This document shows positions 2,031 to 5,528 of a stretch of 64,000 nt of DNA, piece by piece. The position numbers and the translations under genes were made by a program. Each line of letters starts with the position of its first letter. Position 1 is the first letter of the stretch. Location: contig JBQPWD010000001.1 in assembly GCA_052246995.1 (NCBI GenBank), positions 32,001 to 96,000 on the forward strand, given 5' to 3'. The stretch comes from Candidatus Bathyarchaeota archaeon. Lineage in GTDB: Archaea; Thermoproteota; Bathyarchaeia; Hecatellales; Hecatellaceae. The notes under the pieces are model-generated. The model searched no databases, was not told the DNA's origin, and saw only the letters and a program-made list of their open reading frames with translations.

Positions 2031-2059
2031 ACTTAAAAGTTTTAGATACTTAAAAGTTT
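2031..2059 (+). promoter_or_regulatory. Direct repeat ACTTAAAAGTTT x2; the first copy is a likely TATA box for the C/D sRNA
   Basis: Copies at 2031-2042 and 2048-2059; first copy lies about 25-30 nt upstream of the C box. Confidence 0.45.
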
Positions 2060-2060
2060 A

Positions 2061-2121
2061 TAGGTGATGAAATCGCTACACCCTGAAAAATGTTAATGAT
2101 GAGGGTTCAAAGCTCTGAAGT
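2061..2121 (+). ncRNA. Box C/D methylation-guide sRNA
   Basis: C box GTGATGA 2064-2070, 12-nt guide AATCGCTACACC, D' CTGA 2083-2086, C' ATGATGA 2096-2102, 12-nt guide GGGTTCAAAGCT, D CTGA 2115-2118; all four boxes match consensus. Confidence 0.9.
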
Positions 2122-2129
2122 CTTAACTT

Positions 2130-2708
2130 TTAATTTACTTCCCCAGCATTGTTGTTGGCTATGATTATTGCTTTAAATTCTGTTTGTCTCCAAACTTCTA
2201 AAAGTTTTTCAGGTTTACATTTAAGATATGAACCTACAGCTGGGTCATGAATATACAAGTAATTCTCATCGTAACCTACAACAACAACCGTATGTAAATA
2301 CTCGTTGATTTGTATCCTTATGATAACAGGTTTTCCATTATCAATTTCACTTTTAAGTTGCTTCATGTTTAAGGATGCGTAGTAACACTTTCCAAGGTAG
2401 TTTGAAAGTAGAGGAAGCATGTTTTCAAATCTATCGTAACCCAAATAATTGATTTCATCTTGAGTTAAATTATATCCATAATATGCTAGGACCATGCTTG
2501 CAGATGCTTCTGAACAAAACCATGGTTTCTGGTAGAAGAATGGTACGTCTAATATTTTGATTTTAGTTAAGTTTTCCTCTTCAAGCTTGCCAGAATAAAT
2601 TTGGAGGTTTGTTTGTGGAGCTTTACTGATAAAGGTTAAACATAAAATAATTAGTGTAAGTGTAATAGTTAAGACTAAAATTTTGATGCATGTTTTTCCA
2701 TTTATCAT
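2130..2708 (-). CDS. Membrane-anchored or secreted C39-like cysteine peptidase
   Basis: N-terminal hydrophobic helix; VPFFYQ..WFCSEASASMVLAYYG, HTVVVVGYD, IHDP (Q-C-H-D). Confidence 0.85.
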   Translation of the reverse strand: MINGKTCIKILVLTITLTLIILCLTFISKAPQTNLQIYSGKLEEENLTKIKILDVPFFYQKPWFCSEASASMVLAYYGYNLTQDEINYLGYDRFENMLPLLSNYLGKCYYASLNMKQLKSEIDNGKPVIIRIQINEYLHTVVVVGYDENYLYIHDPAVGSYLKCKPEKLLEVWRQTEFKAIIIANNNAGEVN

Positions 2709-2753: not shown

Positions 2754-3752
2754 CTAACTTGAAACAAACCTTTTTAAAAGAAGGTTTGCTGCTGAGTATG
2801 GATCTACTTCCCCTGATGTTACTTTGCTTAACACGTTTTTAAATTCACCATCTATGTTTGCTTTCTTTAAAACATGTTCATATATTTTTTGGGATAAAAT
2901 TTCTAAAACTTCTAACTTATTTTTTTCCATTTTAAGTTTTTCCATCATTCCTGACTCTACAAGGAAGTTTTTATGGTTATCAATTTCTTCAACAAGTTTG
3001 TCTATTCCATCACCCCTAACAGCAATAGTTTTAACAACTGGTTTTTTCCATATTTTATGGAAACCTCTTTCCTTGAGTTTCTCATAATCATATTCAACAT
3101 ACTCTTCAATTTCCCTGACAGTCTGGTCAGCATTATCTTGGTCAGCTTTATTAACAACAAATATGTCTCCAATTTCATAAATACCGGTTTTCATAGCTTG
3201 AATTTCATCTCCAAGCTTAGGCATAAGTACAAGAACAACCGTGTAAGCATACTTTATAACATCAATTTGAGTTTGCCCAGCTCCAACTGTTTCGATAATC
3301 ACTACATCTTTTCCAGATGCATCAAGAACCTTAACAGCATAACCAGTAGCCCTAGACAATCCTCCAAGCGACCCACGACTCCCCATGCTTCTAATAAAAA
3401 CACCACTATCCGTTGAATGTTCTTTCATTCTTATTCTATCACCAAGTAAAGCTCCTCCTGTAAATGGGCTTGTTGGGTCAACCGCCAAAACACCAACACT
3501 TAATCCCTTCTTCCTATATTCCCTGATAAGCCTATCAATAAGGCAGCTTTTACCTACTCCCGGTGGCCCTGTTACCCCTATAACATGCGCTTTTCCGGTG
3601 TAGGTATGAAGCTTTGCAAGGACATTCATAGCCTCACTGTTACCTTCCTCAATTAAAGTTATAAGTCTAGCAATTGCTCTAGTTTCACCATTTAAAACCT
3701 TCTTAACAAATTCGTCAACATCCTCATGTAGTATTCTGTTTAGTGTGGACAT
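2754..3752 (-). CDS. meaB: B12 mutase-associated GTPase chaperone MeaB/ArgK
   Basis: GVTGPPGVGKS, AVDPTSPFTGGALLGDRIRM, ETVGAGQ, VVNKAD. Confidence 0.97.
   Translation of the reverse strand: MSTLNRILHEDVDEFVKKVLNGETRAIARLITLIEEGNSEAMNVLAKLHTYTGKAHVIGVTGPPGVGKSCLIDRLIREYRKKGLSVGVLAVDPTSPFTGGALLGDRIRMKEHSTDSGVFIRSMGSRGSLGGLSRATGYAVKVLDASGKDVVIIETVGAGQTQIDVIKYAYTVVLVLMPKLGDEIQAMKTGIYEIGDIFVVNKADQDNADQTVREIEEYVEYDYEKLKERGFHKIWKKPVVKTIAVRGDGIDKLVEEIDNHKNFLVESGMMEKLKMEKNKLEVLEILSQKIYEHVLKKANIDGEFKNVLSKVTSGEVDPYSAANLLLKRFVSS

Positions 3753-3863: not shown

Positions 3864-5528
<1,665 letters not shown>

Follow-up and report, generated by a model that had tools for sequence, protein, structure and literature searches.

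At positions 2060-2122 of its plus strand, the analysed DNA (a stretch of 64,000 nucleotides, hereafter called the window) carries a sequence predicted to be transcribed into a box C/D sRNA, whose ends are approximate since the boxes and the position of the TATA element served to place them. Its C box GTGATGA (2064-2070), which fits RUGAUGA, is followed on the same strand by a 12-nt D' guide AATCGCTACACC (2071-2082), the D' box CTGA (2083-2086), a 9-nt D'-C' spacer AAAATGTTA (2087-2095), the C' box ATGATGA (2096-2102), a 12-nt D guide GGGTTCAAAGCT (2103-2114) and the D box CTGA (2115-2118). The original prediction had listed four consensus boxes and two 12-nt guides, and all of them read exactly so at 2064-2118. 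The terminal C (RUGAUGA) and D (CUGA) boxes, the internal D' and C' boxes and the guides of about 12 nt are the features that define archaeal C/D sRNAs, and all of them are present here. By their sequence, the C and D boxes can form a kink-turn with tandem G-A pairs and a U-U pair.

When we searched the 1,530,043-bp genome with a regular expression that strictly encodes this architecture, the perfect box pattern was found at a single locus (2064-2118) and at none in the reversed-genome control. With one box mismatch tolerated, the same pattern returned 5 loci in the whole genome and 0 in the reversed sequence, and with two box mismatches these numbers were 8 and 1. The 5-8 loci obtained with the relaxed patterns indicate that the organism has a small set of C/D sRNAs, and the window sRNA is the best-formed member of this set. 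In an E-value scan of Rfam, the family RF00095 (snoPyro_CD) aligned with the sRNA from end to end (model positions 1-58 of 58; 22.6 bits, E 0.012). This score is below the gathering threshold of 45 bits, and several further archaeal C/D families matched the sRNA more weakly. A scan of the whole window at the gathering thresholds of Rfam gave nothing at the sRNA locus.

The TATA-like element that had been announced upstream of the sRNA is present as CTTAAAAG at 2032-2039 (plus strand), some 28 nt ahead of the C box, and its position alone suggests a promoter role. In an alignment of six genomes, it lines up in all five relatives with A/T-rich elements of the TTTAAA type (CTTAAAAG, CTTTAAAT and GTTTAATT types). 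An exact 12-nt direct repeat ACTTAAAAGTTT occupies positions 2031-2042 and 2048-2059 just upstream of the C box. Its first copy corresponds to the TATA-like element, lies at TATA-box distance and is the only copy kept in a relative of the same genus. Downstream of the D box, a T-rich stretch CTTTTAATTT (2127-2136, plus strand) may act as an archaeal oligo-T terminator, and runs of five to six T are found 10-20 nt past the D box in the relatives. A scan for hairpin terminators of the bacterial type found none, and for an archaeon scans for bacterial-type promoters and terminators are uninformative.

The sRNA is a free-standing gene, located 9 nt past the stop codon of a protein gene that runs toward it. 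The latter is a Peptidase_C39-like gene (2130-2708, minus strand), which ends 9 nt past the sRNA and beyond which a MeaB gene (2754-3752, minus strand) and a gene for methylmalonyl-CoA mutase (3864-5528, plus strand) are located. Upstream of the sRNA, a homologue of Pcc1 (KEOPS, t6A tRNA modification) is encoded at 1467-1778 on the plus strand; a Pcc1 gene beside the sRNA was not seen at the loci of the relatives. For the other flank, synteny extends to five of the five Bathyarchaeia relatives, in which the sRNA adjoins orthologues of the convergent Peptidase_C39-like and MeaB genes (about 60-80% protein identity).

Aragorn called 44 tRNA genes in the genome (G000), among them a single tRNA-Gln(UUG) gene at G000:C3:88373-88448. 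As originally stated, this gene is absent from the window, where the only tRNA gene encodes a tRNA-Met. In the established mechanism of archaeal C/D sRNPs (reviewed in PMC7994747), a D guide directs fibrillarin to the ribose of the nucleotide at N+5. Here, we found that all 12 positions of the D guide pair with GGCUUUGGACCC (G30-C41) of tRNA-Gln(UUG), forming 10 Watson-Crick pairs and two G-U pairs (positions 1 and 8 of the duplex), and that A2110 is opposite U34 at N+5. This is the duplex that had been predicted for the D guide, with two G-U pairs and with U34 as the nucleotide to be methylated according to the D+5 rule. The D' guide forms 10 contiguous pairs (9 Watson-Crick and one G-U) with GGUGUAGCGG (G9-G19, position 17 being absent), with A2078 opposite U13 at N+5. 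The N+5 pair is a Watson-Crick pair for both guides (A-U34 for D, A-U13 for D').

The last two positions of the D' guide are opposite C20 and C20a and remain unpaired, so that the D-arm duplex comprises 10 bp rather than the 12 bp that had been claimed. The central claim that both guides fit tRNA-Gln(UUG) was confirmed, since the predicted GGCUUUGGACCC and the predicted D-arm start GGUGUAGCGG are both found in the genome's single gene. For the D arm itself, the prediction held with respect to this start and to U13 at N+5, but the real D-arm reads GGUGUAGCGGCC and not GGUGUAGCGGUY, and therefore only 10 of the 12 positions of the D' guide are paired. The gene for tRNA-Gln(CUG) shares the D-arm, so that the D' guide fits this tRNA too, and the D guide meets an A-C mismatch at C34 there. 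This second tRNA-Gln gene (G000:C2:139181-139274, minus strand) contains an intron and was miscalled 'Pyl(cta)' by aragorn. Taken together, the interpretation of the sRNA as a guide for wobble methylation of tRNA-Gln(UUG) is supported.

Complementarity to other stable RNAs was quantified with a target set of 43 tRNAs, 16S and 23S rRNA (8,703 nt in total). From this set, we excluded as dubious the 'tRNA-Val(gac)' called by aragorn at G000:C9:6293-7133, which measures 841 nt with a 741-nt intron and gave no strong guide match; it probably represents either a miscall or a highly unusual gene. Apart from tRNA-Gln(UUG), no tRNA or rRNA of the set offered the D guide 10 or more contiguous pairs. For the D' guide, the outcome was mixed, in that the fit to tRNA-Gln stood but positions 295-304 of the 23S rRNA fit equally well. 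Of 2,000 shuffled guide pairs compared with all stable RNAs, 14 reached the 12/12 match of the D guide and 98 reached the 10 or more contiguous pairs of the D' guide, and both shuffled guides came together on one RNA in 5 of the 2,000 shuffles. When shuffled guides were compared with tRNA-Gln(UUG) alone, the D match was reached 20 times and the D' match 227 times in 200,000 trials. In the genome as a whole, 9 sites match the D guide over 12/12 positions with at most two G-U pairs, namely its own antisense sequence, the tRNA and 7 others. These 7 matches lie outside the stable RNAs, and their number is about that expected by chance. The case therefore rests on the set of stable RNAs and on the fact that both guides meet in one molecule of 76 nt.

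When 41 genomes (the organism's own and 40 relatives) were searched at the DNA level, the sRNA was detected in 6 of them, the organism's own included. Within the family, it was present in 5 of 13 other genomes, which belong to three genera and are by name Ca. Hecatellales or Bathyarchaeia. In the six-genome alignment, 40 of the 55 positions of 2064-2118 are invariant, as compared with 5 of 71 flank positions. The D' box and the C' box are identical in all six genomes, and the D'-C' spacer measures 6-12 nt in the relatives. In one relative (G011, L018), the C box is shifted 3 nt upstream and is accompanied by CUGA, which gives a C-D' spacing of 15 nt.

Position 5 of the C box and position 2 of the D box co-vary. 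They are U/U in G000 and G001 and A/A in G006, G007 and G009, where the boxes read GTGAAGA and CAGA. Thus, the U-U pair of the kink-turn beside the tandem G-A pairs becomes an A-A pair by changes on both strands. This co-variation was seen in two related genera (L019, L021, L022) and amounts to no more than one or two events in evolution.

For the guides, we paired by script the tRNA-Gln genes of the relatives with the guides of their own sRNAs, and five genomes (G000, G001, G006, G007 and G424) possess a tRNA-Gln(UUG) gene along with the sRNA. In all five, U13 and U34 are kept at N+5. At positions 1 and 2 of the D' guide, C-to-U changes in G001 and G007 lead to G-U pairs, and at position 10 the U-G pair of the window genome is a C-G pair in other genera. 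At position 11 of this guide, G000 and G001 have an A-C mismatch, G006, G007 and G009 an A opposite U20, and G424 a G opposite C20. With these changes, position 11 follows the tRNA and not the 23S site, where this genome has a G. In G007, the tRNA-Gln(UUG) gene (L013) carries an intron of about 30 nt at a non-canonical position in the D-arm region.

Beyond the close relatives, a contig scan with one genome per species, in which the pattern consisted of the C' box, the D guide and the D box, returned 8 loci. Five of them belong to MAGs titled Ca. Hecatellales or Bathyarchaeia, one to a Thermofilaceae MAG and two to Acidobacteriota. The two Acidobacteriota matches are GC-rich and have no upstream boxes, and we took them as chance matches. 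A pattern that left the anticodon stem free but retained the guide register was found in 4 of the 401 genomes of a phylum sample. A relaxed-box pattern was found in 6 of the 201 genomes of a class sample, all of them members of one family, and in none of the 187 genomes from 31 other families. The reversed-pattern controls gave 0 throughout these wider genome samples.

In the Thermofilaceae MAG (G424, L017:2770-2900, minus strand), the guides for U34 and U13 of tRNA-Gln are arranged in reverse order with the anticodon guide first. The internal C' box of this sRNA is degenerate, and the locus shares no synteny with the window. The U13 register is retained in spite of the swapped guide order, and the sRNA looks from its sequence like a circularly permuted version of the window sRNA. 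Circular permutation has been described in Pyrobaculum sRNA families (PMC6009581).

A second arrangement was found in G394, which belongs to another class of the same phylum. Its C/D sRNA (L028:1474-1522) joins a U34-type guide for tRNA-Gln(UUG) to a different D' guide, which forms 10 Watson-Crick base pairs with the 3' acceptor strand of the organism's own tRNA-Gln gene and has U72 at N+5. The tRNA-Gln gene of G394 (L030:1501-1622; 46-nt intron according to aragorn) has an exon anticodon arm with CUG. Its 'intron' contains a second, near-identical copy of the anticodon arm with UUG, and this copy is the stretch matched by the D guide of G394. A separate gene for tRNA-Gln(UUG) was not found in this MAG, which is 89% complete. 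Judged from its sequence, this one gene might yield both tRNA-Gln isoacceptors through alternative splicing.

The proteins of the C/D sRNP are encoded in the genome of the window. Fibrillarin (PF01269, 321 bits) and Nop5 (PF01798, 237 bits) are adjacent on C7, and L7Ae (PF01248) was detected with 111 bits. If the sRNA follows the C/D sRNP mechanism, L7Ae would bind the C/D and C'/D' kink-turns, and Nop5 and fibrillarin would then assemble. The D guide would pair with the anticodon arm (G30-C41) of tRNA-Gln(UUG), and fibrillarin would 2'-O-methylate the nucleotide that faces guide position five, counted upstream from box D. This nucleotide is the wobble U34 (Um34). The D' guide would pair with G9-G19 of the same tRNA molecule and hold the D-arm open; either duplex would require the D-arm or the tRNA to be unfolded. 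In this complex, the D' guide would either direct a second methylation at U13 or aid the U34 reaction through binding of the same tRNA.

Four sequencing runs were compared with positions 1850-2450, and their outcome speaks neither for nor against transcription. The only RNA run with raw reads, of which about 12% was read and in which the presence of the organism is not established, gave 0 reads on 1850-2450. One 255-nt contig of an RNA library covers 2360-2450 only and none covers the sRNA, and contigs of two probable DNA libraries also lie on 1850-2450.

The box anatomy, the complementarity to the organism's own tRNA, the statistical excess over shuffled guides, the conservation, the co-variation of guides and targets and the presence of the protein genes point in the same direction. 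We consider it likely that the region around 2060-2122 (plus strand) encodes an independently transcribed dual-guide box C/D sRNA of Bathyarchaeia (Ca. Hecatellales-like), which would direct formation of Um34 in tRNA-Gln(UUG) and the D' guide of which would act on the same tRNA. Within this reading, a real methylation of U13 has at best an even chance. The conserved N+5 register speaks in its favor, and two observations weigh against it. Among the literature matches listed, there was no report on a 2'-O-methylated U13 in tRNA (the titles dealt with mitochondrial RNA, rRNA or plant ribosomes), and position 13 of tRNA is a known pseudouridine site, as stated in PMC7668247 and PMC2651775.

Chance or decay could in principle have left a cluster of motifs from which no functional sRNA is expressed, and the Rfam match below threshold and the fact that expression is deduced from the sequence would fit with it. 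We regard this explanation as very improbable, since perfect boxes occur at no other place in the genome, the locus shows strong conservation between flanks that cannot be aligned, the co-variation of the boxes preserves the kink-turn, and the dual match to one tRNA goes far beyond what shuffled guides achieve. A more specific alternative concerns the D' guide only, the physiological target of which might be U299 of the 23S rRNA (own 23S numbering; G000:C5:189395-189404), either alone or besides tRNA-Gln. Positions 295-304 (GGTGTAGCGG; stretch GGTGTAGCGGGG) offer this guide the same 10 contiguous pairs (9 Watson-Crick and one G-U) as the tRNA does, and rRNA is the target of most archaeal C/D guides according to PMC6009581 and PMC7994747. 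On the other hand, nowhere in the rRNAs does the D guide find 10 or more contiguous pairs, although dual rRNA guides usually address sites less than 100 nt apart (PMC7994747). Moreover, guide position 11 follows tRNA position 20, forming A-U pairs in G006, G007 and G009 and a G-C pair in G424, whereas the 23S rRNA has a G at this place that pairs with neither. When we looked for the 23S stretch around the rival site in the five sRNA-bearing relatives, it was found in 0 of 5, these being MAGs without assembled rRNA. On balance, we consider rRNA an unlikely target of the D' guide.

A third explanation accepts tRNA-Gln as the target of both guides and questions the catalytic role of only one of them. 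The D' guide would not direct methylation of U13 but would merely be a second binding arm, which holds the tRNA unfolded and raises the methylation of U34. Reportedly, Ziesche et al. found in 2004 that double guides are maximally active when both targets are located in cis. The missing report on Um13 among the literature matches listed is in line with a binding arm, and so is the finding that the partner of the U34 guide targets other sites of the same tRNA, which are U72 in G394 and G18 in S. acidocaldarius (PMC7668247). Such differing partner sites suggest that binding of the same tRNA matters more than the site. However, N+5 coincides exactly with U13, Watson-Crick paired to an A, in five of five genomes, and these include the Thermofilaceae sRNA with swapped order, in which the U13 guide precedes the terminal D box. 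In addition, the D' and C' boxes of the window sRNA have perfect consensus sequences, so that a catalytically competent half-RNP is to be expected. A role of the D' guide as a binding arm only is therefore somewhat unlikely in our opinion, and a U34 guide whose D' guide acts on the D-arm of the same tRNA remains our preferred reading.

Only about 5-8 C/D sRNAs appear to be recognizable in the genome, of which at least three point by complementarity to position 34 of tRNAs (Gln-UUG, Glu-UUC and Leu-CAA). Besides the window sRNA, there is a candidate at G000:C3:58349-58401 (minus strand), the D guide of which fits U34 of tRNA-Glu(UUC) with 11 contiguous pairs including two G-U, and another on G000:C2 near 194127 (minus strand), the D guide of which fits C34 of tRNA-Leu(CAA) with 12 pairs including one G-U. 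For a further candidate (G000:C5:129765-129812, plus strand), the D guide fits U11 of tRNA-Val, tRNA-Ser and tRNA-Glu, and some of the D' guides of these three candidates fit the 23S rRNA. Part of this list comes from a half-guide screen that is noisy, with 19 real matches and 7 matches in the reversed control. A second apparent tRNA-Gln 'guide' at G000:C3:54874 (minus strand) forms 12 pairs with N+5 in the anticodon stem, and we rejected it for having no credible C box or other upstream box. The small size of the guide set, together with the presence of at least three guides for position 34, suggests that anticodon methylation may be the function that was retained.

In different genomes, the U34 guide is combined with guides for different partner sites. 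The partner site is U13 in the Hecatellales-like Bathyarchaeia and in one Thermofilaceae MAG and U72 in G394, and for Sulfolobus it is G18 (PMC7668247). A broader scenario, to which we attach some plausibility while rating it clearly below even, is that the U34 guide represents an ancient and conserved module, which was coupled in various thermophilic archaeal lineages to varying second guides, always against the same tRNA. Two-point binding would then have been selected for, and Um13 would be real and present in both tRNA-Gln isoacceptors. A methylated U72 to which no guide is assigned has been reported for tRNA-Gln(UUG) of S. acidocaldarius (PMC7668247), and if the module scenario is true, the G394 guide would supply this missing type of guide. 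The comparison of the lineages represents a natural experiment on the dual-guide design, with the same U34 guide combined with different partner sites and in different orders. Two testable predictions arise from it, namely that Um13 occurs in the lineage studied here and that G394 has a guide for U72.

The closest known counterpart of the window sRNA is the sRNA for tRNA-Gln of Sulfolobus. In tRNA-Gln(UUG) of S. acidocaldarius, U34 and G18 were predicted to be C/D-guided and were observed to be methylated, and Um34 is present (PMC7668247). The Sulfolobales precedent for RNA-guided methylation of U34 in tRNA-Gln, on which the original prediction had drawn, was thereby verified. The sRNAs of S. 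acidocaldarius and S. solfataricus resemble the window sRNA in being dual guides that act with both guides on tRNA-Gln(UUG), one of them at U34 (Ziesche, Omer and Dennis 2004, as cited in PMC7668247). They differ in their second site, which is G18 of the D-loop in Sulfolobus and U13 of the D-stem here, where G18 is found at N+9 (position 9 of the D' guide). They differ also in their host, which belongs to the Thermoproteia in the case of Sulfolobus and to the Bathyarchaeia in our case.

For Pyrobaculum, sR27 has been predicted as guide for U34 of tRNA-Gln with this single tRNA target (Lui et al., 2018, PMC6009581). Dual guides for two sites of one tRNA are rare according to the same text, which names only sR46, sR61, sR123 and sR126. 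Since sR27 is absent from the dual guides named there, it is evidently not dual on one tRNA. The window sRNA thus shares with sR27 the guidance of U34 in tRNA-Gln and differs from it in being dual on one tRNA, and sR27 gave no match in the Rfam E-value scan of our sRNA. It should be noted that both the Sulfolobus sRNA and sR27 were likened to the window sRNA by description and not by sequence. RF00095 (snoPyro_CD) of Pyrococcus has the same box order and spacing, but its guides are unrelated, and the resemblance is one of architecture only.

Guides for wobble positions of other tRNAs are described in PMC7994747. A C/D guide encoded in the intron of archaeal pre-tRNA-Trp addresses C34 and U39, and Pyrococcus sRNAs address position 34 of tRNA-Leu, tRNA-Met and tRNA-Trp. 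They have RNA-guided 2'-O-methylation at the wobble position in common with the window sRNA, and in the tRNA-Trp case there are also two sites in one tRNA. Unlike the window sRNA, they act on other tRNAs, and the Trp guide resides in the tRNA's own intron, whereas the window sRNA is free-standing. In the library searched, no paper pairs Bathyarchaeia with box C/D sRNAs, and the one paper that names this group along with fibrillarin and tRNA is unrelated. Since Sulfolobus already provides a known case of C/D-guided formation of Um34 in tRNA-Gln(UUG) and such a case has been predicted for Pyrobaculum, the window sRNA is another example and not a new mechanism. It differs from these cases in the class of the host, in the register of its second guide on U13 of the D-stem and not on G18, and in that the evidence points to an exchangeable partner guide. 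The window sRNA extends RNA-guided wobble methylation of tRNA-Gln from the Sulfolobales and Pyrobaculum to the Bathyarchaeia.
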